Assembly: GCA_000004985.1 (NCBI GenBank)
Contig: GG738898.1
Direction: 5' to 3' (one strand)
Source of the DNA: Naegleria gruberi
Lineage: Eukaryota
DNA length: 64,000 bases
Of this stretch, positions 7,896-49,941 are shown in pieces. The stretch's first letter is position 1; every line of letters starts with the position of its first letter. The position numbers were made by a program, and so were the translations under genes. The notes under the pieces are model-generated. The model was not told the origin of the DNA, searched no databases, and saw only the letters and a program-made list of their open reading frames with translations.

Positions 7896-9008
7896 TTAAG
7901 CCCATCTTAATAAAACCTCTGCTGCTTTCTTTGTTTCTGGATTCTTTATCTTGCTGAATAGGGATCGAGCTTTTTCTAAATCTTTTGGAACTCCTTCCCC
8001 ACCGTTCAAATAAATAGCTCCAAGATTAAAAAGGGAATTATCATTACCTTGATCGGCTGCTTTTTGTAACCAATAAATAGCTTTGGCTTTGTCTTCTTTA
8101 ACTCCTGTTCCCATATTGTACATGGCCCCCAGGTTATTCTGTGCTGATACATCACCTTTGTTAGCCAGTTGCTCGAGCCAGTTCACATCTGTTGAATAAT
8201 CCTTCTTGCTTATCTCATGTAGAGCTGCAATAGAACCTTGAAAACCTTGACTGGCAGCTTTTTCTAACCATTGAATTCCAATTTGATAATCCTGTTTAAC
8301 CCCAATTCCATTAAAGTACATTATTCCAACATTGTGTTGTGAGTGAACATATCCTCCTTCTGCTGATTTCAAGTACCAATCAAAGGCAGTAAATGGGTTC
8401 TTCTCTACTGCATCCCCTCTTGCATAAAAACCACCCAAGTTATATTGAGCTTTTGCATATCCATTATCAGACGCTTTTTTGAACCAATACAATGCCTTTG
8501 ACTTGTCACCAATCGCAAGATATTGGACCCCAAGATTATTCTGTGCTTTTACGTGGTTTTGATTGGCTGATTTTTCAAAAAACTGCAGTGCTATTTCAAT
8601 ATTTTTAGGCACACCCAAACCTTCCTGGTACAAGTAACCCAAATTAAATTGAGCTTCTGAATTATTTTGTTCAGCCGATTTCTCATACCAATAGACAGCT
8701 TTCTTATAATCAATGTCAACTCCAGTTCCATTTTGATAAGCAGCTCCAAGATTATTCTGTGCTATGGAATCTCCTGTATCAGCTTGTAGTTGAAGTAATT
8801 CAAGAGATGATTTGTTGGGTGATGATTTGAAAAAATTCATAAAGCCTAATCCCTTTGATGAAGCATGAAACGATCTAATGTTTAAATTAGTATTAATATT
8901 ATTATTGATTACAGCAAATGGTAATGAACATTCCGAGAATTTTGTCATCAAAGGCTTTGGTAAAAACTTTGAATTCAACAAGAAGGCTGTCTTTTTGATT
9001 GCTCTCAT
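7896..9008 (-). CDS. Sel1-like (TPR-family) repeat protein, about 8 repeats, with an N-terminal presequence-like region
   Basis: An uninterrupted 370-aa ORF with repeated A.(N/Q)NLG.(M/L)Y..G.GV..D..KA..W(Y/F).KAA.QG motifs, for example AQNNLGAAYQNGTGVDIDYKKAVYWYEKSAEQN. The N-terminus MRAIKKTAFLLNSKFLPKPL is basic and hydroxylated. Confidence 0.9.
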   Translation of the reverse strand: MRAIKKTAFLLNSKFLPKPLMTKFSECSLPFAVINNNINTNLNIRSFHASSKGLGFMNFFKSSPNKSSLELLQLQADTGDSIAQNNLGAAYQNGTGVDIDYKKAVYWYEKSAEQNNSEAQFNLGYLYQEGLGVPKNIEIALQFFEKSANQNHVKAQNNLGVQYLAIGDKSKALYWFKKASDNGYAKAQYNLGGFYARGDAVEKNPFTAFDWYLKSAEGGYVHSQHNVGIMYFNGIGVKQDYQIGIQWLEKAASQGFQGSIAALHEISKKDYSTDVNWLEQLANKGDVSAQNNLGAMYNMGTGVKEDKAKAIYWLQKAADQGNDNSLFNLGAIYLNGGEGVPKDLEKARSLFSKIKNPETKKAAEVLLRWA

Positions 9009-9209: not shown

Positions 9210-10076
9210 ATGAATACATCACTCCATACACCAAAGAAGAATAGTCAGTTCTCTGTTGGCTCTCCTCCTCAACCAAATTCTATTCAACAATCATCAATTG
9301 CCTCTGTCGGATCACCTTCAACTTCTGCTTCTCTATTGACTGGCATTGATTTTAAGGCTATTGAGGATATGGATCCATCGTTAGCAGAAGGACATAGAAC
9401 AATCTTTGATAAGGAAATACCAATTGAATTACGTACTCAAGATCAAAATGAGTCTGACAATGATCTAGGAACCCTTGAAGCTATCAGAGTTAAAATCCTC
9501 ATCTTGGAAGGAGAACACGAAGACGAGGCTCATGTAAAGTTGGAACTTACTTCCGAGTCTGATCTTTTCTTCCATTATTCTCACACTGTTGGAAGACAAC
9601 AATTTATTGGCCTGCAACAATCCCAAAAGTTGATGGTTGATTTCCCAAATTATCCAAAAATGTTGAGCAAGATGTTGAATGCTTGTGTCAAGGAACCAGA
9701 AAGTTTCTTATGTATCTTGATTATGGAAAGAGATGGAAAAGGATTGCTTAATTTTGTTCAAAATATGGAATACAAGGTAAGTGTTTGAGAATCATTGAAA
9801 ATTTAACAATGTCAGTTTGTGGAATTACTGAGTTTGGAATTGAGTGAAAGTCCAGAACATGTTATTCGTCAACATATTTCATTCAGATATAACAGTATGA
9901 GGTCAAGAGTTGCTATCCTCAACGCTAGATTGCAAGAAGTTTCCAACATTATTAAGATTAAGAACCCATCCCTGTTGTTGCACTTAAGTCGTGCTGTAAC
10001 AGGAGCCCAAACAAGTCTTTCTGCTCCATCATCCTCCTATTTAAATACTCAACAACCTGTACAAAAGAAGAAATAA
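9210..10076 (+). CDS. SAS-6-like protein (PISA-type head domain, no long coiled-coil). It has 2 exons with a 39-nt intron at 9777..9815.
   Basis: Exon 1 ends ...NMEYK, with the donor GTAAGTG at 9777. The acceptor is CAG at 9813-9815, and the intron is 39 nt with an in-frame stop. Exon 2 begins FVELLSLELSE in the same frame. The core DLFFHYSHTVGRQQFIGLQQSQKLMVDFPNYPKMLSKMLNAC matches the SAS-6 head-domain signature (D.FFLY..v.eEdFq.LK.qQ.L.VDF..FP..li.LL..C). The protein is only about 277 aa, like SAS6L paralogs rather than canonical SAS-6. Confidence 0.6.
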
Positions 10077-10092
10077 ACTAGGGACAATCTTT

Positions 10093-11295
10093 TTATTCGA
10101 TATTTTCCACAAGAGCCATCAATTGTTCACTTGATGAAGGTCTAGCAGCTGGATCCAATTGTAAAGTCATTTGAACAAAGTCCAACAATTCTTCACTGTA
10201 AATATCCTTCAACTCATTACAAATATCACTGACAAAGTTTGGATTCTTGGATAATTCCTCTTTAACATCGGTCATTCTCTGTGAAAGAATTTCTAAAATG
10301 ATAACACCTAGGGACCAAATATCACTCGATGCTGAATAGTCCTGTCCTTTAGCTTGCTCTGGAGACATGTAGCACTCTGTTCCAACTTTGGCATTTTCCA
10401 CAGATTTTACAAAACAACTCAATCCAAAATCTCCAATTCTCAACTCATCTCTCTCATTATCATTGAAGAAAATATTCTCTGGTTTCAAATCTCTGTGAAG
10501 ATAACCTTTCGTATGAATAAAAACTAGAGCAGCAGTCAATTTTCTCAACCAATTCACTACCAGTGTTTGACTGACAAGTGAGGATGCACCATTCTTCTTC
10601 TTGAACCTATCCAAGTACATTCTCAAGTCTCCTCCCTTGCAAAACTCCAAAATAATACAGAGAACATATTCTTGTTTTCCTGCATCACTTTCACTAGCTC
10701 CTACTCCAATAGTATCGGCAATAATTGTCGATTCCTTTTGTTCAACGAAAAAGTCATGAATTGAATTGATATACTCGTGTCTCAATGAATAGAGAGATTT
10801 GATTTCATTAAAGTTCTGATTCAATTCTTGTATGGTTCTCAGCTTGATTCTCTTCATGACATAGAACTTCTTTTCAGTAGAATCCTTCTCAGAAACTATA
10901 TAGGCAGCACCCTGAGCTCCAAGTCCAATACGTTTCTTGATAGCATACTTTTCACTATAGTCAGTTCCCTTACTTTCAATTGCTGTTTCAAGAGTTGATT
11001 TGATTGCTTCCTCTTCTTCGGGTGTCAGTTTGGGATTGGTAATGAGTTTCTGTGGACGCTTTGGTGGTCCAGTTGGTACATTTTCCGTTACACTGTCAAA
11101 TAAGTGTTGCTTTGGTACAAGTGAAGTGGTTTGAATTTGTGAGGAAGGTCTCTTTAAAATATTCGAAATGAAATTGGAGAAACCTCTCTTCTTGACAGTT
11201 GGTTTTGGAATACTGGCGCTCTTCTTTCCTGAATCCTTCATTATTCCTGAAATACTCAACACATCTGAAACTCCATTATCACTACAATTCATCAT
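10093..11295 (-). CDS. Ser/Thr protein kinase
   Basis: A 400-aa ORF with a Gly loop IGLGAQGAAY, the lysine motif YVMKRIKL, the catalytic loop HRDLKPENIFF, DFG (IGDFGLS) and the activation/APE region GTECYMSPE. A basic, low-complexity N-terminal linker of about 110 aa precedes the domain. See the finding on a possible splice from the upstream G-alpha gene. Confidence 0.9.
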   Translation of the reverse strand: MMNCSDNGVSDVLSISGIMKDSGKKSASIPKPTVKKRGFSNFISNILKRPSSQIQTTSLVPKQHLFDSVTENVPTGPPKRPQKLITNPKLTPEEEEAIKSTLETAIESKGTDYSEKYAIKKRIGLGAQGAAYIVSEKDSTEKKFYVMKRIKLRTIQELNQNFNEIKSLYSLRHEYINSIHDFFVEQKESTIIADTIGVGASESDAGKQEYVLCIILEFCKGGDLRMYLDRFKKKNGASSLVSQTLVVNWLRKLTAALVFIHTKGYLHRDLKPENIFFNDNERDELRIGDFGLSCFVKSVENAKVGTECYMSPEQAKGQDYSASSDIWSLGVIILEILSQRMTDVKEELSKNPNFVSDICNELKDIYSEELLDFVQMTLQLDPAARPSSSEQLMALVENIE

Positions 11296-11327
11296 TAATA
11301 AATATTTTGAAAATATTGTAATAATAC

Positions 11328-13136
11328 TTACTTGAGAAGAATCTTTAAATTATCATTCTTTAGTGAAGGTGGATTTGAGTCTGACTGTCTCAATATAGAA
11401 TCTAAACCCTCCTCAAACAAATATTTGACAAATGACTTGTCAATTGCAGACATTTCATACATGTGAATTGACTTTTTAGACTTCAATTCCGTTCTAATAA
11501 TGTTATAGAACAATCTTCCAATATATTTCCTACTATTATCGAAAACATTTTGTGGTTCTGTTGATAAATTAATTCCTCCTGTCGATGCGGTTATTGTGGT
11601 GAATGCAGAAACATGGAAACCTTGCTTCTCAAAATCTGGAAATATCACAGAGATTGACTTGTCCTTTTCCTCAATCTTTTCCTTAAAAACATCCATCTTG
11701 TTGAGTACAATTACAAATTCAGATTCCAAATTTCTCATATTCATCTCTTGACAAACAGATTTTAACACTTCAATGGATTCTTGAAGTTTGTTCTTATTTT
11801 TCTGATCACACGAATTGACATCAAAATCAGCCACTGAAACCACATAAACAATCACATCAGGTTTGGCTTCCAATAGAAGGGCCCACTTTTTTCTTTCACA
11901 TCTCTCACCACCAGTATCGTAGACTTTCACAACAGTGGATTTACTAATTTTCACATCCACTGAATTGATACCAGTTGTTTGCACTCTCATTTTAAAATAA
12001 TCATCTTCAGTTGCTATTATTATTGCATTCGAATCACATTATTCTAAACGTGGAAATTACTTACGTTTATAATCTTCCTTGAAAATTCTATTGATATTCT
12101 TCATGAAATAGACAATATTTTCACTAATATGAAAATTAAAATCCGTAGCATTCATAAATAAATATCTCACAGCATTATTCCTCCAAATTGCCTTGATATC
12201 CGATTTCAATTCTTTCAAACCTCCTTCATAATCAATATGCCAACTTCTCTCATTCATCGTCTTGGTCGAAATAAACTTGATCCTATTCACAATCTTTTCC
12301 TCTGCCTTGTTCCATTCGAATTGGAAAGAAGAAATGAGTGAATTTCTTCTCCTATTTTCATTACTCATATTCATATTCACATCAAATTGTTGTTGTTGAT
12401 TGATTTCATCATTGGCAAATGTTGTCCTTCCTCTATTGAATAGTGATGGTTTTTGAGAATCGTTACTTGTTGTTTTTGAAGTTAATGGACTTGATTGACC
12501 TAAAGAGGAAGGAGACAAACCTGATGAAGATGTAGAAGCACTTGATGTTTCTAATAGTTTAGAATGTCTCATTGCAGTGCTAACAGCACTAATTCCCAAC
12601 AAGGAATCATCACCAAGAGCATTTTCATCAAAACTATTCGAAAGTATAGAACGATCACTAAATTGTGAAGGATTGCTCTTTACAAGATTTATCAATTCAT
12701 CAGAAAGTCTTCTATCATGTCTCGTACTCGCCTTTCTCTCTAAATTCGGCATTGATGTATTCGAAACCGCCTCTCTACTAGCACTTGTAATTGCGTTGCT
12801 GCTGCCATTATTATCAGAAAGTAAACTATTGTTTGCCACAAATTGTTCCATAAATTTTATGGCCCTCTTGATGTGATGAACAATTTCATACTGAAGTGAA
12901 GTTTTAATTAAAATTCGATTTTCTTGCGTTGAATGAAAATTACAAAATTGAGCATTTCCATATAACGATCGACAACTTTTGAAAATTGTGCTTTTACCAC
13001 TTTCGGAAGTACCTAATAGTGCAACTACTGGGATGGTGTGGATGGTTGTTGTTGATGAGGGAAATGGAAATGGTGGAGATGAAGTTGTTGGTGATGGTGG
13101 AACCATTTTTTTGATTTTAAAATTGGCAGATGACAC
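11328..13136 (-). CDS. Heterotrimeric G-protein alpha subunit. It has 2 exons with a 51-nt intron at 12014..12064.
   Basis: Exon 1 (13136..12065) contains the G1 P-loop LLGTSESGKSTIFK and a Ser-rich insertion of about 150 aa in the helical domain. It ends ...IFKEDYK + C. The donor is GTAAGT at 12064 and the acceptor AATAATAATAG ends at 12014. Exon 2 (12013..11328) starts CA to give Pro, then TEDDYFKMRVQTTGI, which matches PTQQDVLRTRVKTTGI of G-alpha-i. Further motifs are DTGGERCERKKW (G3), LNKMD (G4) and a canonical C-terminus ...KNDNLKILLK. The join is in phase. Confidence 0.9.
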
Positions 13137-16030: not shown

Positions 16031-17047
16031 TCAGTGGGTCATGTCTTCCACTTCTTGTAAACCAAGATCAGCCATATTTACATGAATATTTACATTGTTC
16101 GCAATTGAGGATTTTACAATATTGATAATTGCTTTGGATTCACCAATCTTGTAGATTTTGAGTCTATGATTCACAAAGTGGTACCAATTAATACCAAGTT
16201 GAGCTTCATCTGAGGATGAAAGGGAATTTGTTACAAGTACACCCACCTTGAACTTTTCGTTCAATTGTTTAAGGAGTGTAGCCTCTGTTTGGAGAATACT
16301 GGCTCTTTCAAAAGCTCCACCTTCTTTCCCTTGAAATTCCTTTGTTGATAATGTTGCCAGTGAATCAATAACAATTAATTTAATATTCTTCTCGAAAATG
16401 AATTCTTCCAAATTGTCTAAACTGTCTATCAACTCTTTGGAGCTGGCAACATGAATTATTGTACACTTCTTCAGAATTCTTTCTTCAATTTCTGATTCGC
16501 TCATATCAGGATTTCTGTTCTTCATCATGAAATATATTCTTTGGAAAATATTTGCTTGTTTAACTTCAGTGTCGAAAATAACACAACCAAACTTATCAAA
16601 CTCCATCAATAAATCACTAACAGCGGAAAGACAAAATTCTGATTTACCTGATGTTGTTGCTCCAACAATTTCAGTGATCATATTCAACGGAATGCCTCCA
16701 TGAAATAATGTATTAAAGGATGGAATATATTTCAATGGTAAAAACATTTGCTTATTTTGCTTTTCATTGTATAGTTGTAGACCAGTCCTTGGATTATTTA
16801 AATAATTTTGTGATATTATATTAGTTTTGAAAATCACATTCCGAACATAATTAGAGGCTTCCTCAAGTGTGCTCGTATCCAAAATGTATCGTAACTTGGA
16901 GTTTGGAACACAGAGTAATTGTTGTGTTGTGTTGATATTGTTCTGTGAGAGTGATGAAAGTTGTGTTGATGAAAAAAGCTTCAGATCAGAGAGACGAGCG
17001 TTTAAAGCCATTTTTTTGTTTTTAAATTTTTTATTGGCGGTTTCCAC
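16031..17047 (-). CDS. RAD51 paralog (RecA-family ATPase; XRCC3/RAD51C-like)
   Basis: GGIPLNMITEIVGATTSGKSEFCLSAV (Walker A) and KLIVIDSLATL (Walker B) in a 338-aa ORF. An N-terminal region precedes the ATPase core. The alignment pattern resembles RAD51 GGIETGSITE..G..GKTQ.C. Confidence 0.75.
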   Translation of the reverse strand: METANKKFKNKKMALNARLSDLKLFSSTQLSSLSQNNINTTQQLLCVPNSKLRYILDTSTLEEASNYVRNVIFKTNIISQNYLNNPRTGLQLYNEKQNKQMFLPLKYIPSFNTLFHGGIPLNMITEIVGATTSGKSEFCLSAVSDLLMEFDKFGCVIFDTEVKQANIFQRIYFMMKNRNPDMSESEIEERILKKCTIIHVASSKELIDSLDNLEEFIFEKNIKLIVIDSLATLSTKEFQGKEGGAFERASILQTEATLLKQLNEKFKVGVLVTNSLSSSDEAQLGINWYHFVNHRLKIYKIGESKAIINIVKSSIANNVNIHVNMADLGLQEVEDMTH

Positions 17048-40343: not shown

Positions 40344-41564
40344 TTACATCATTGATTCATTCAATTGTTTCATCAGTTCATCCAAATCTTGATTTTCAAC
40401 ATTTACCAATTCCTTCTCATCAACCTTCTTATTGTGATGTTCGTATTGATATTCGAGACCGTGTGATAAATCTTCATGACGATGAGCATGTGAGTGAATG
40501 TCAATATCTTCAACTTCATCAGCAACAATTTCAATACCCCATTCATTTTCTGTGTGAACAATCTTCTTTTCATCAGCTTGTTCCTTATCTTCTTCATCGA
40601 GATCCAAGTCGAGTAAACCTTCTTCCTTCAATTTGGCAATTTCAGTTTGTCTCTTGAGACACATTGGATTGGAACATTGAGGATTTGGACGAACCTTCAT
40701 GGTTGGGAAATAATCATTAATGGCACTATAACCCAAGTAATAGCTAATCTTACCAAATCTCAACAAGTATTTCAATACAGATTGAACCAATAAACCAGCA
40801 GTAATACCCATAGTTGTTGGTAAACTGGCAGCACAAACACCTTCACGTTTAACTTGCTTAACACCACTTGCAACAACCAATGGTGGAGCACATTCATAAC
40901 AAGCAGTGAGACCAGGAACCATGAATTGAATGTGACCACTGACAGCATCTTCACTGACTCCACTTTCCATCCATCTAATATTCAATTCATTACAAGCTCT
41001 ATTAATTGCAACTCTAGCTTCAAAATTATCAACACATGACAATACTAAATCAACCTTTCCATTTGTTAATAAATTTCCAGTATTAATTGTATTCATAAAA
41101 GTATCAAAATTGTCCAAAGAAGTAATATTATATGAACATGTTTCAAAAACAACATCAGGATTAATCTTTGAAAGAGTTTCCTTTGAAGCATCCACCTTTG
41201 TCATACCAACTTGATCCGGAGTGAAGAACAAACGATTCATATTAGCAAGAGAGACAATATCAAAATCGAACAAGATTAATTTACCAATACCACATCTTGT
41301 TAACATTTCGCAAACAACAGCACCAACACCTCCCAATCCAACAACAGCCACAGTAAATTCTCTGATTTTTTCATAATTCTTAACAATACCCATCGATGAG
41401 AGAGCCATCAATCTAGAGTATGGATTATCGTCCTTAACTTCGGAAGAAATGACAGAAATTTTCTCTCGGATCACTTTTTGTTGTTGATTTTGAAGTTGAT
41501 TCTTCAGAGAGGCTACTTCCTCTTCCAATTGTTTGATACGTTCTTCCGATTGTTGTTGACTCAT
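40344..41564 (-). CDS. UBA5: Ubiquitin-like modifier-activating enzyme 5 (UFM1-activating E1)
   Basis: A 406-aa ORF that is collinear with UBA5. Matching blocks include [68 protein letters not shown], then [44 protein letters not shown], then the catalytic CxxC block [19 protein letters not shown], and then [15 protein letters not shown]...FYLGY...[12 protein letters not shown]. Confidence 0.95.
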
Positions 41565-45786: not shown

Positions 45787-48700
45787 CTATCTTTTCTGTT
45801 GCAGTTCGATAAATTTTCGAAGACCTTTAAAGTTGGGAAGTGGCTGAAGTTGGTTGAGGTTTAGCGACCTTAGAATGGAATTGACTTCTGAGAAGTGTAC
45901 ATTTGGAGGGTTGAGTTGAGGTTGGTGATCGAATATGAATGGTTCAATAGTGAGATTTTCACCAAGGTTCAAGTGCAATAAGCATTCATCATTAGGTGTT
46001 GATAGAACCTCAATGAAAGGGAAGATTGAAGAGTGCATAATTCTCTGATGAAGAGAAATCGAAAAAAGGAAAATTCCATTCATGGTGAAGTAAACCTCAC
46101 CTTGCTCTGTCAAACCACATCCAATTGTATCTCCACAATGTGCAATTATTTCCAATTCCTTATAAAGTATTTCCTTTTTATCGGCAGACATTATACAGCC
46201 GAATCCTTCCTGTGCCTGAAATGCATATTTTCTATCAACACAATTATTCTCACTAATGTTTGATCTGGCCATCAGTCCAATAGAAACCTTGGAGGATATC
46301 AATCGATGGATTTGAACTTCATAGTAGAATACAGTTTTCATGGAGGGTTTTCTAATGTTGGCAGATGGATTACCAAATCGCCTAGTTTCTGCAATTTCTG
46401 GTTGGAAAAAGAAGAGAGAATCTTTGGTGGTTAGTGACATTTTGGTAGCTCTAGAAGAAACAAAGTGTAGAGTTCGTTCATTATCCAATACCTTGAGTGG
46501 TGATCCTTGAAGATTTACAAGGTGTGAAAAATCTGCTTTGGTTTCAATAGGTACTGGACTATAGTTTCCAAGGTAGTGGTTGATGAGCTCTTTTTCATTT
46601 CCAAGAGTACTGTTTGGATGGTTATCAAAGTGGAAAACCTTGATATCGTTAGGATTCAAATTGTTACAGAGTAAATGATAAATCAATGTTTGTCTATCAA
46701 CGTAGGAGTAATTTTTCAAAAGGCCGAAAGTTAACAGACCACTACCGGTTGGAATGAGATAGTACATGCTATTTGGAAGTCCACATACATTATTATCTCC
46801 AACTATTGCCCCGAATTTCGTATTTCCAATTGTATGGTAGGTTGTAAACTTTTCAAGACTGAAGAAATCATAGAGGAAATTATTCATTACTCCTAGTACT
46901 CTATCTGCAGCACTCTCATCACCAGTGTCAAGAGCCAAGTTCAGTATCTTGGCAAGTTTTTGCCACACTGGTTTGATGATTGCTCTTCTGTGATGGAAAG
47001 GAATCTCATTGAAAACCTCGACTAGTATTGGCTCGATATTGTAATTTGGAGAAAGTAGAGTGGCATAGCCTGGTTCAATGAGTGAAATGTATGTATAGAT
47101 TCCTCTCAATAATTGAGTCTTTTTCTCTGAAAGTGGATCTGAAGATCTGCCAATTTTGCTTTGATTTCTTTCGAGCCACAAACAATAACCAACACGAGTT
47201 GACTTGTCATATTTGCAAAGGAAGAAGATTATTTTCAAGCAGGAAAGGGTGAAGAAAAATTCTGGACTATGGAAAACCTTGGCATGGATAAAATTCAAAA
47301 TACAAGTTGTGGAATATCTTCCCAATTCGTCAACAAGTAAGGAGGAGGTTTCATTTCTCATTTCTCTGATTATTCTCTTAATGTGTCTCTTATCTGTTTG
47401 ATTGTCATAGTATGTGAGTACTTGAGAAATTATACTCAGTGTGCTCTTGAAAATCTCATCATACATCTCATTCAACTCTACACTTGACTCTGTGTGAGCT
47501 CGATCTGAGAATAATTTTCTGGAAATGTAGAACATCAAAACGGGGAGGACTCTATACTCTGACATTAATTCGCAACATTTCTGCCGTAATTTTTCATTGG
47601 AGAGCAAGTCTTTCATGCCAAGAATGGATTTCTTAACAAAAAGACTGCTTGTGTCAAGTCCACTCAAAAATCCTAACAAGGATTCCGGCTTACTGAGAAT
47701 ATTCAACAATTGAGATGAGTCATTCTCAAAGATGAATCTCCATGTTTGTATGACTGGGTGTTCTAATAGTTCAGCTGCACTTTTTCTTTCCTCCCTAGCA
47801 CACACCATCATTTTCACAATTCTTTTTGATCCAATGTCAAATACATGTTCATGAATAAACTCAAAGTAGTGATTCGAACGCATAAATAACCAAAAGTCAA
47901 TATTATACCGTCTTGCTCTTTGATCGATTAATTGTTGGAAATCCTTCACAGTTAAAGTAGCCGAAACTTGCATAAAGATAATTCCTAGACTGTAAACATC
48001 AACTTTGTAATCATATTCAGCTCCAGGTTTAACCTCAGGAGCAACATAGGCCCGAGTACCACAAATAGTTGATGTAGAGTTTTGATGAACAAGTTGCTTA
48101 GCAAGACCAAAATCAATAATTTTCAAAGTAATCTTTCTAATTTCTTCCTCAAAATTATTCTTTAAATTATCAGAATCATATTGCACAATAATGTTTTGCG
48201 GTTTCAAATCTCTGTGAATAACCTTATTTTGATGGAGATAATTCATGACTTCGAGTAATTTGATGAACCATGAGAATCTGACATCCATGGTCAAAGTTTT
48301 GAGACCCTTACTTTCCTTTGTAATTTCATTCAAATCAGAAATAAACTGATCCAATATTTTACCACTACAATATTCCATAAGAATGCAGTAGTATCTCTTG
48401 TTAATGTCCATGAATGAGTCATAATATTTCACAATATTTGGATGATCCAGCATCATCATTAATTTCACTTCCTTTTCCTGATAGTCATTGATTGTGATTC
48501 TTTTTAGAGCAAAAATTCTATTGGTTCCAACTTGGACAACTCTGAATACAGTTCCATAAGATCCTTCTCCTAACTGCTCAAGTAGTTGGAAGGATTTTGT
48601 TTTCTTGNNNNNNNNNNNNNNNNNNNNNNNNNNNNNNNNNNNNNNNNNNNNNNNNNNATCGAAAGAGTTTGCGTTTCCGTTCATTACAAAATTCTTTTGG

Positions 48701-49941
48701 AAATTTGATGATGAATGAGATTTCTTTGAGGAGTGAGTTTTGCTTGTTTCAGAAGGTTTCGTCTCAATTTCTGATAGGCCCATGAGATCATACTCATCAT
48801 CATTGTCTGCAGTACTTCTTCTACCATCTTGAGGTTCGGATTTACCAGATCCCTCATCACTCACAAACAGAACATCACTATTGAAATCATGATTAACTTG
48901 TTGCTGAGGATTGGATGTAGTAGAAGGTTTAGATGCATGTAAAAATGCATTACTTTTAAAAGGTGAAGATCCAAAATCAATATCCATCTCATCAAATTCA
49001 TCCTGTGTTATTGGTGTGATCATGAAATTAGGTGTCGTGTTTTGAACTGGTTGTTGGATTGGTGAATGTATTGTATTAATGTTGAACGATCCAAAATTCT
49101 GATCAATATCATACCTCTCATCATCGTCGTCATCAATGAGATCGAACGATTCGAGGGCATCGTTTGGATTTGGCTTTTTAGGCACTGAGCTATAAGCAGG
49201 AGTTACACTAAAAGCAGGTGAAATTACAGAGATAGGTTGAGAATTTTTTGAAGACATGAATTCATCATCATCCTCATCGTCTTCCTCAATAACGAAAGAA
49301 TCGACTAGTTTCGTATTGGCAAGATTACTTCTTATTGTTCCTGTTGTCGAATATGAATTTGATGGAGATGGAACATAACTATTCGAAGGAGATTGAACAT
49401 ACAATGGAGATGGAGTAAACGTGAGAGGCACTTGTGGATAGTTATGATGATTGTGAAATTGACTCGGAAAATATGCTTGTTGTTGGTTTGTATTTACATT
49501 TCTCGTATTATTATGTTGTTGATGATTAAGAAAGAGAGGTGGAGATGATGATGTAGTATTTGTTTGTGGAAAACCATTTTGATTCGGCTGTTGTTGATTA
49601 GAATTTGGATGGAACACAAAATTATTATTCATCATGAATGGTGGCAATGTTTGACCGCCATTCATCATTTGATTATTGCCAATCAATGGAGAACCCATCA
49701 TTATTCTCGTGTTCGGTGAAGAAGCAGGTGAAGAAGTATTCGAATCTGCAGAGTTTCGTCCATTCATCGAAGGAGACGATGAAGGAGAAACTAGAATAGC
49801 CTTCCTCCTCTGTCTTCCACCTCCTACCTTTGGACTTGATGAATTAGGTGGTGATATCGAAGAAGCTCCTCCTCCACTTGATGATGACGAAGGCTGTATG
49901 AAATTCCTATTCGGTGATGTTGGATATCCATTCATGATCAT
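45787..49941 (-). CDS. Large protein kinase (about 1384 aa) with a low-complexity N-terminus, a central kinase domain, a long middle region and a C-terminal SPRY/B30.2-like domain. It contains a 50-N gap.
   Basis: The kinase motifs are LGEGSYGTVFRV, IFALKRI, HRDLKPQNIIV, DFGLAK and VAPE. The C-terminal FYYEVQIHRL...VSIGLMARS...GFGCIMSADKKEIL...GDTIGCGLTEQGEVYFTMNGIFL has the SPRY pattern (YyFEV.i...gv.iGl.........G....g.w.....g........f..GDviGc..d...g...Ft.NG). The N-run 48608..48657 lies inside the ORF, which stays in frame across it. Confidence 0.8.
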   Translation of the reverse strand: MIMNGYPTSPNRNFIQPSSSSSGGGASSISPPNSSSPKVGGGRQRRKAILVSPSSSPSMNGRNSADSNTSSPASSPNTRIMMGSPLIGNNQMMNGGQTLPPFMMNNNFVFHPNSNQQQPNQNGFPQTNTTSSSPPLFLNHQQHNNTRNVNTNQQQAYFPSQFHNHHNYPQVPLTFTPSPLYVQSPSNSYVPSPSNSYSTTGTIRSNLANTKLVDSFVIEEDDEDDDEFMSSKNSQPISVISPAFSVTPAYSSVPKKPNPNDALESFDLIDDDDDERYDIDQNFGSFNINTIHSPIQQPVQNTTPNFMITPITQDEFDEMDIDFGSSPFKSNAFLHASKPSTTSNPQQQVNHDFNSDVLFVSDEGSGKSEPQDGRRSTADNDDEYDLMGLSEIETKPSETSKTHSSKKSHSSSNFQKNFVMNGNANSFDXXXXXXXXXXXXXXXXXKKTKSFQLLEQLGEGSYGTVFRVVQVGTNRIFALKRITINDYQEKEVKLMMMLDHPNIVKYYDSFMDINKRYYCILMEYCSGKILDQFISDLNEITKESKGLKTLTMDVRFSWFIKLLEVMNYLHQNKVIHRDLKPQNIIVQYDSDNLKNNFEEEIRKITLKIIDFGLAKQLVHQNSTSTICGTRAYVAPEVKPGAEYDYKVDVYSLGIIFMQVSATLTVKDFQQLIDQRARRYNIDFWLFMRSNHYFEFIHEHVFDIGSKRIVKMMVCAREERKSAAELLEHPVIQTWRFIFENDSSQLLNILSKPESLLGFLSGLDTSSLFVKKSILGMKDLLSNEKLRQKCCELMSEYRVLPVLMFYISRKLFSDRAHTESSVELNEMYDEIFKSTLSIISQVLTYYDNQTDKRHIKRIIREMRNETSSLLVDELGRYSTTCILNFIHAKVFHSPEFFFTLSCLKIIFFLCKYDKSTRVGYCLWLERNQSKIGRSSDPLSEKKTQLLRGIYTYISLIEPGYATLLSPNYNIEPILVEVFNEIPFHHRRAIIKPVWQKLAKILNLALDTGDESAADRVLGVMNNFLYDFFSLEKFTTYHTIGNTKFGAIVGDNNVCGLPNSMYYLIPTGSGLLTFGLLKNYSYVDRQTLIYHLLCNNLNPNDIKVFHFDNHPNSTLGNEKELINHYLGNYSPVPIETKADFSHLVNLQGSPLKVLDNERTLHFVSSRATKMSLTTKDSLFFFQPEIAETRRFGNPSANIRKPSMKTVFYYEVQIHRLISSKVSIGLMARSNISENNCVDRKYAFQAQEGFGCIMSADKKEILYKELEIIAHCGDTIGCGLTEQGEVYFTMNGIFLFSISLHQRIMHSSIFPFIEVLSTPNDECLLHLNLGENLTIEPFIFDHQPQLNPPNVHFSEVNSILRSLNLNQLQPLPNFKGLRKFIELQQKR
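48608..48657. other. Assembly gap (50 N) inside the kinase-SPRY gene
   Basis: N-run. Confidence 0.99.

Follow-up and report, generated by a model that had tools for sequence, protein, structure and literature searches.

The analysed window is a stretch of 64,000 nucleotides of Naegleria gruberi contig GG738898.1 (assembly GCA_000004985.1), AT-rich with a GC content of 33.6%, in which a first-pass annotation had placed the gene of an atypical heterotrimeric G-protein alpha subunit (G-alpha) at positions 11328-13136. In textbook accounts, G-alpha subunits are stand-alone switches whose effectors are separate molecules. Comparison of the gene with its relatives makes it nearly certain that this stretch is the front half of a G-alpha-kinase fusion and not a complete G-alpha gene. 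The spliced product would be a single polypeptide of 970 amino acids, in which an N-terminal G-alpha module is followed by a linker of about 130 amino acids and a C-terminal Ser/Thr protein kinase. In the G-alpha module, the catalytic glutamine of switch II is replaced by a glutamate that is conserved among the Naegleria sequences.

The whole gene is composed of three exons on the minus strand (Table 1), and the stretch first noted corresponds to exons 1 and 2. The G-alpha is encoded by two minus-strand open reading frames (ORFs) together, 12057-13136 and 11328-11990, the region being split by intron 1; removal of this intron restores the canonical ...DYK-PTEDDYFKMRVQTTGI... sequence (PTEDDY...) across the junction. 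The end proposed at 11328 proved to be the donor of intron 2: the TAA at 11330-11328 lies within this intron, inside the splice donor ...CTCAA/GTAAGT..., and the removal of intron 2 puts the G-alpha frame in phase with the kinase ORF, so that the gene runs to 10093. The start was displaced as well, since the N-terminus MSSANFKIKK given previously begins at a GTG (13136), and the start codon is the first ATG (13106-13104), which stands in an A-rich context and opens a product beginning with MVPPSPTTSS. The spliced product is residue-for-residue identical to the N. gruberi protein XP_002672374.1 (EFC39630.1, NAEGRDRAFT_72548, UniProt D2VU62). The gene model itself is already public, its annotation going no further than "predicted protein" or a generic Ser/Thr kinase. 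This case illustrates how a prokaryote-style reading of ORFs sets wrong gene limits in the intron-containing genome of N. gruberi.

A free-standing atypical G-alpha, whose gene would end at the TAA at 11328 with the kinase (10093-11295) as a separate neighbouring gene, would account for the facts that the G-alpha frame read alone meets this TAA, that the kinase ORF has in-frame ATGs of its own (MMNCSD...) and that retention of intron 2 would give exactly a 575-amino-acid product. We regard this as very improbable, given that the TAA overlaps a canonical GTAAGT donor and that the 50-nucleotide intron 2 resembles the 51-nucleotide intron 1 and restores the frame. Furthermore, the position and phase of intron 2 are kept in N. 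lovaniensis (locus L001) and in a Naegleria-type Logan contig (L002), where the frame of exon 3 is devoid of Met until well inside conserved sequence. In these two loci, coding conservation runs through the exon 2/3 boundary ahead of any Met, which argues against two separate genes. In addition, the annotated protein is a fusion in each of N. gruberi, N. lovaniensis, Willaertia magna and Acrasis kona.

Sequence comparisons indicate that the fusion is conserved across Heterolobosea. The N. lovaniensis protein P0001 has Pfam matches to both G-alpha and Pkinase. In L002, both introns are found at the same positions and phases and the reconstructed in-frame fusion reaches 1067 amino acids, and a JGI metagenome contig (L004) carries a G-alpha fragment (P0007) followed by a kinase fragment (P0159). 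The same architecture was observed in W. magna (P0013, 856 amino acids) and A. kona (P0019, 753 amino acids), and more distant members were found in AT-rich organisms (L003/P0265 and P0161). The kinase is the most conserved part of the protein, with 77% identity within Naegleria, 66% with Willaertia and 38% with Acrasis, the corresponding values for the Ras-like domain being 56-60%, 32% and 28%. As regards the searches, a 575-amino-acid query including the low-complexity insert described below gave 6 matches, low-complexity words swamping the candidates, and exon 2 used alone as a query returned no matches.

Two of these loci deserve a separate comment. The N. lovaniensis annotation XP_044551975.1 (836 amino acids) is N-terminally truncated, P-loop sequence being present upstream of its start (L001 5447-5989 and 5878-6636); this P-loop part is split from the rest by a frame change in a poly-Gln/low-complexity stretch, and this change may reflect either an intron missing from the annotation or a fault in the assembly. 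The distant fusion of L003 (1943-3860; Logan ERR14790941, 27% GC) has a myristoylation-like N-terminus, MGTAQGK, and different neighbouring genes.

The N-terminal module matches the Pfam G-alpha profile (PF00503) with 199.9 bits for a cut-off of 48.8 (E = 8e-59), and G-alpha chains of the PDB at about 1e-28. The nucleotide-binding set is complete from G1 to G5: GTSESGKST, RVQTTG with the switch I Arg and Thr, DTGG, NKMD and MSAID. The retention of the switch I arginine in the motif MRVQTTG, reported in the first-pass annotation, is in agreement with our alignment, where it is Arg357. In a full-length AlphaFold2 run the G-alpha half had a predicted local distance difference test score (pLDDT) below 50 owing to a shallow alignment, and a second run was made on the G-alpha part with an alignment of 135 sequences. 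The resulting model has a predicted template modelling (TM) score of 0.74, a Ras-like core with pLDDT above 90 and an all-helical domain between G1 and G2. With this model as query, Foldseek matched structures of G-alpha-i, G-alpha-s, G-alpha-12/13 and plant GPA1 at a probability of 1.0, the target-normalised TM scores being 0.72-0.81.

Fold, family profile and G1-G5 motifs are thus those of a heterotrimeric subunit. What the protein lacks is the catalytic Gln (Arg357 of the pair being present), a lipidated helix at the N-terminus and a C-terminal tail that is free. The N-terminus, MVPPSPTTSSPPFPFPSSTTTIHTIP, contains neither Gly2 nor an early Cys and so has no lipidation signal; the earlier statement that the acylation signal is absent therefore holds for the corrected start. 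No helix (alphaN) precedes beta1 in the AlphaFold2 model, and in Willaertia and Acrasis merely 7-8 residues stand ahead of beta1. At the other end, the alpha5 tail is not free and runs into the linker, then into the kinase. The P-loop has Ser34 at the position of G-alpha-i1 Gly42 (Ras Gly12), and a second "oncogenic-type" lesion was considered for this Gly42-to-Ser change; it was down-weighted, as Ser occupies this position in 6 of 92 representative P-loops (Gly in 75).

The switch II motif reads DTGGERCERKKW (window 11918-11883), and its Glu384 occupies the position of the catalytic Gln204 of G-alpha-i1, as had been read initially, although the codon is GAG and not GAA. Gln stands in this column in at least 90% of the 135-sequence G-alpha alignment, in 139 of the 148 switch II motifs obtained from the 150 best representatives of an exhaustive search, and in 79 of 80 metagenome G-alpha loci. 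These last loci came from a scan with the family alignment that gave only distant canonical G-alphas (24-36% identity), and were used solely for this tally. The Gln-to-Glu change at the catalytic position is real and uncommon. Independent Gln-to-Glu variants of switch II, DTGGERSERKKW and DVGGERVERRKW, were noticed in divergent G-alpha-like proteins of fungal type that carry no kinase (L059 2865-4567; P0115 of Polyplosphaeria fusca; P0044); the L059 protein, whose switch II is DTGGERSERKKW, additionally bears a long extension at its N-terminus, and its NKxD motif is replaced by TKMD.

A sequencing error at this codon had been put forward as the observation that would remove the substitution. 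The Glu is found in four independent Naegleria-type assemblies, encoded by GAG in the window, GAA in N. lovaniensis (L001), and GAG in both L002 and L004. Because the codon varies synonymously around a fixed amino acid, a sequencing error is ruled out and selection for Glu in Naegleria is indicated. A decaying pseudogene, for which nothing speaks beyond the unusual residue, has a negligible probability as well, since several species keep open and conserved reading frames of about 1000 codons. Orthologues with Gln had also been named as a possible refutation, and this applies only in part: Acrasis has Gln, Willaertia has Asp, and every Naegleria-type sequence has Glu. The Glu is conserved within Naegleria.

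The consequence expected from this residue comes from known modifications of the same chemistry. Pasteurella multocida toxin converts Gln205 of G-alpha-i2 into Glu, which inhibits the basal and RGS-stimulated GTPase activities and leaves the protein locked in its active form (PMC3202810), and CNF1 is reported to act likewise on Gln61/63 of Rho-family GTPases (PMC12607883). By analogy, Glu384 is expected to cripple GTP hydrolysis; from the loss of GTPase activity in G-alpha-i2 we infer that the module would hydrolyse GTP slowly or not at all. Conversely, Glu384 might act as a general base in a GTPase that cycles at a normal or rapid rate. In favour of this, the module keeps the switch I Arg finger and the Mg-binding Thr, and the Q61E substitution is reported to have raised the intrinsic GTPase activity of H-Ras. 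We hold this to be distinctly unlikely, since the precedents of the same chemistry, G-alpha-i2 Q205E made by the Pasteurella toxin and Rho-family Q61E/Q63E made by CNF1, lose hydrolysis.

Another possibility is that the module no longer binds or switches on nucleotide and only serves as a scaffold or localisation domain for the kinase. This pseudo-GTPase hypothesis draws on the loss of key residues outside Naegleria: (i) in Willaertia, the catalytic Gln is Asp, the switch I Arg is Tyr and NKxD reads TKND; (ii) in Acrasis, where Gln is kept, the switch I Arg is likewise Tyr and NKxD reads NKRT; and (iii) in the distant L003/P0265, the P-loop (LATRDSGKST) and switch II (DIGDAKKE) are both degenerate. 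The faster evolution of the G-alpha part relative to the kinase points in the same direction. The loss of nucleotide-binding motifs that defines a pseudo-GTPase is partial in these three lineages and is not seen in Naegleria, where the four Naegleria-type sequences have intact G1, switch I Arg and Thr, DxxG and NKxD (G4 being NKMD, NKSD or NKTD), and G5 is kept as SA/CA in three of the four, the L004 fragment P0007 having ISSL. This retention indicates selection for nucleotide binding in Naegleria, and we consider a pseudo-GTPase unlikely, albeit less so than a rapidly cycling enzyme.

The helical domain contains the Ser/Asn-rich low-complexity insert seen in the first reading, which is longer than the approximately 150 residues claimed: it covers 175 residues (22% Ser, 11% Asn) in the alphaA-alphaB region. 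Its identity to the other Naegleria sequences is 25-31%, apart from conserved islands, namely RRLSD, RRNS and AMRH. Residues 154-228 have a pLDDT below 50 in the AlphaFold2 model and are modelled as disordered. From their sequence, the conserved, basophilic RRxS sites of the insert are candidate regulatory phosphorylation sites and likely constitute an additional input.

The ORF of exon 3 matches the Pfam Pkinase profile (PF00069) at 3e-45, and the kinase domain has a pLDDT above 90 in the full-length AlphaFold2 run. All the catalytic motifs are intact, GLGAQG, YVMK with the beta3 Lys, HRDLKPEN, DFG and YMSPE, and the kinase is apparently active on this basis. The named relatives outside the fusion family are few and all are NEK kinases, the matches overall showing 28-35% identity. 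Among solved structures, PKR and other eIF2-alpha kinases match best (8e-27), and NEK1, NEK2 and NEK7 come next. We describe the kinase as NEK/PKR-like and do not assign it to one family. With regard to gene structure, an extra intron inside the catalytic loop (HRDLK/PEN) was observed in L001 (about 8245-8310), L002 (11044-11091) and L004 (near 1364-1490); in N. gruberi this intron is absent and HRDLKPEN is continuous (window 10497-10474).

Taken together, these data lead us to lean, by a modest degree, towards a hydrolysis-impaired G-alpha module, uncoupled from Gβγ and from receptors, that would regulate the attached NEK/PKR-like kinase in cis. The module would bind GTP and hydrolyse it very slowly or not at all, would stand outside the classical heterotrimer, with no coupling to receptors through alpha5, and would serve the kinase as a built-in domain for regulation or targeting, with a long-lived nucleotide state. 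Such control would parallel that exerted in ROCO proteins by the Roc GTPase over the kinase, and the RRxS sites of the insert, when phosphorylated, would probably add a further input. The slow-cycling or otherwise regulated G-alpha suggested in the first-pass annotation is consistent with this proposal as far as the conserved Glu and the G-alpha-i2 Q205E precedent are concerned; that annotation treated the protein as a free-standing subunit and missed the kinase fusion. A more elaborate version, in which heteroloboseans would possess a one-protein G-protein pathway, with a GTP-locked or long-lived G-alpha module controlling the kinase allosterically and with the RRxS insert rather than GTP hydrolysis as the regulated input, is possible but tentative. 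For comparison, the G-alphas of N. fowleri are reported to be self-activating and regulated mainly through RGS GTPase-activating proteins (PMC9283941).

Several points weigh against cis-regulation of the kinase by a hydrolysis-impaired module. The splicing on which the fusion is built is deduced from conservation and gene predictions. Ras Q61E is reported to hydrolyse GTP faster than the wild type, which suggests that the effect of a Glu depends on its context. The full-length AlphaFold2 run gave no usable contacts between the G-alpha and kinase domains and no predicted aligned error. Finally, because the residues of Acrasis and Willaertia vary, the family appears not to be held to a single catalytic state, and a drift towards a domain that no longer switches is possible.

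The N. gruberi module resembles canonical G-alphas (G-alpha-i1, plant GPA1 and Entamoeba EhG-alpha1) in its Ras-like and helical fold, G1-G5 motifs, switch I Arg and Thr and the RxxRKKW core of switch II. In contrast to them, it has a Glu for Gln204, no alphaN helix, no Gly2/Cys lipidation, an alpha5 continuing into the linker and kinase, and the 175-residue insert. The change is the same, at the same catalytic position, as in the toxin-deamidated G-alpha-i2 Q205E and Rho GTPases, which are arrested in the active state; there it is imposed by a toxin, whereas the N. gruberi Glu is genome-encoded and conserved. The ROCO proteins (LRRK2, Dictyostelium GbpC/Roco4, DAPK1) also carry a GTPase and a protein kinase on one polypeptide, and intramolecular control by the nucleotide state is likely shared. 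However, the GTPase of N. gruberi is a G-alpha and not a Roc domain, and its kinase is NEK/PKR-like; Pfam found no Roc or COR domain in the fusion protein, only G-alpha, Arf and Pkinase, and the ROCO proteins are thus an analogue and not a homologue. The GRKs, the Dictyostelium RGS-kinase and GPCR-PIPK likewise join a component of a G-protein pathway to a kinase (PMC3971589; PMC5784254), the fused partner there being an RGS domain or a seven-transmembrane receptor, unlike the G-alpha here. Plant XLG and divergent fungal G-alpha-like proteins share with the N. gruberi protein a G-alpha-like domain with altered catalytic residues and extra regions, but they belong to unrelated lineages and have N-terminal extensions and no kinase.

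In the searchable literature, a scope that excludes the comparative survey of Anantharaman et al. 2011 (Gene 475:63), where an earlier mention would be likeliest, we came across neither a G-alpha-kinase fusion from Naegleria or other Heterolobosea nor these accessions. A paper on the G proteins of N. fowleri lists 13 G-alphas with no mention of a kinase fusion, and its Table S1 gives no identifiable orthologue.

Table 1. Positions of the parts of the fusion gene, of the motifs of its product and of neighbouring genes (window positions unless a locus is named)
Feature	Position	Strand	Remarks
Exon 1	12065..13106	-	Pro/Ser/Thr-rich N-terminus, P-loop, helical domain with Ser/Asn-rich insert, to ...KEDYK plus 1 nucleotide
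Intron 1	12014..12064	-	51 nucleotides, GTAAGT...TAG, phase 1; same position in N. lovaniensis and L002
Exon 2	11332..12013	-	Ras-like domain of the G-alpha module (switch I, switch II, NKMD, G5 MSAID, alpha5) and start of the linker
Intron 2	11282..11331	-	50 nucleotides, GTAAGT...TAG, phase 2; same phase and position in L001 and L002
Exon 3	10093..11281	-	Conserved linker, Ser/Thr protein kinase domain (residues about 680-970), stop codon 10095-10093
P-loop (G1)	12987..13013	-	GTSESGKST, residues 32-40; alignment
Ser/Asn-rich insert	12321..12845	-	Residues 88-262, alphaA-alphaB region of the helical domain
Insert island RRLSD	12699-12713	-	Conserved
Insert island RRNS	12339-12350	-	Conserved
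Switch I Arg357	11985..11987	-	AGA; equivalent of G-alpha-i1 Arg178; motif MRVQTTG, alignment
Switch II Glu384	11904..11906	-	GAG; catalytic Gln position (G-alpha-i1 Gln204); alignment
G4	11691..11705	-	LNKMD (NKxD), guanine-specificity motif; alignment
G5	11439..11453	-	MSAID, equivalent of TCATD; alignment
SAS-6_N (centriolar) gene	9210-9788	+	L001 8728-9567; L002 11511-12359; L004 1768-2592
Sel1-repeat protein gene	7896-9008	-	Ordinary neighbour
Rad51/RecA-like ATPase gene	16031-17047	-	Ordinary neighbour
ThiF-family (E1-like) enzyme gene	40344-41564	-	Ordinary neighbour

Among the neighbouring genes, the SAS-6_N gene is convergent with the fusion gene and directly downstream of it in all four Naegleria-type loci. 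Together with the NEK-like kinase, this neighbour makes a basal-body link conceivable; plain synteny among close relatives would explain it equally well. Elsewhere in the window, a 1384-amino-acid ORF (45787-49941, minus strand) encodes a protein kinase domain at its centre (Pfam Pkinase 1.8e-51), and its long flanks have no Pfam match. In the databases, two tandem G-alpha domains per polypeptide were noticed in P0008, P0009, P0010, P0015, P0025 and P0075, and could be real fusions or merged gene models.

A conserved G-alpha-kinase family would offer a natural test of the control of an effector in cis by G-alpha switch regions. It would also allow one to ask how a G-alpha functions once Gβγ, the lipid anchors and the receptor-binding tail are gone, and what the native effect is of a genome-encoded Gln-to-Glu change, the lesion by which bacterial deamidase toxins lock G proteins on. 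For the biology of the organism, the fusion is a lineage-specific signalling protein in a genus that includes the pathogen N. fowleri.

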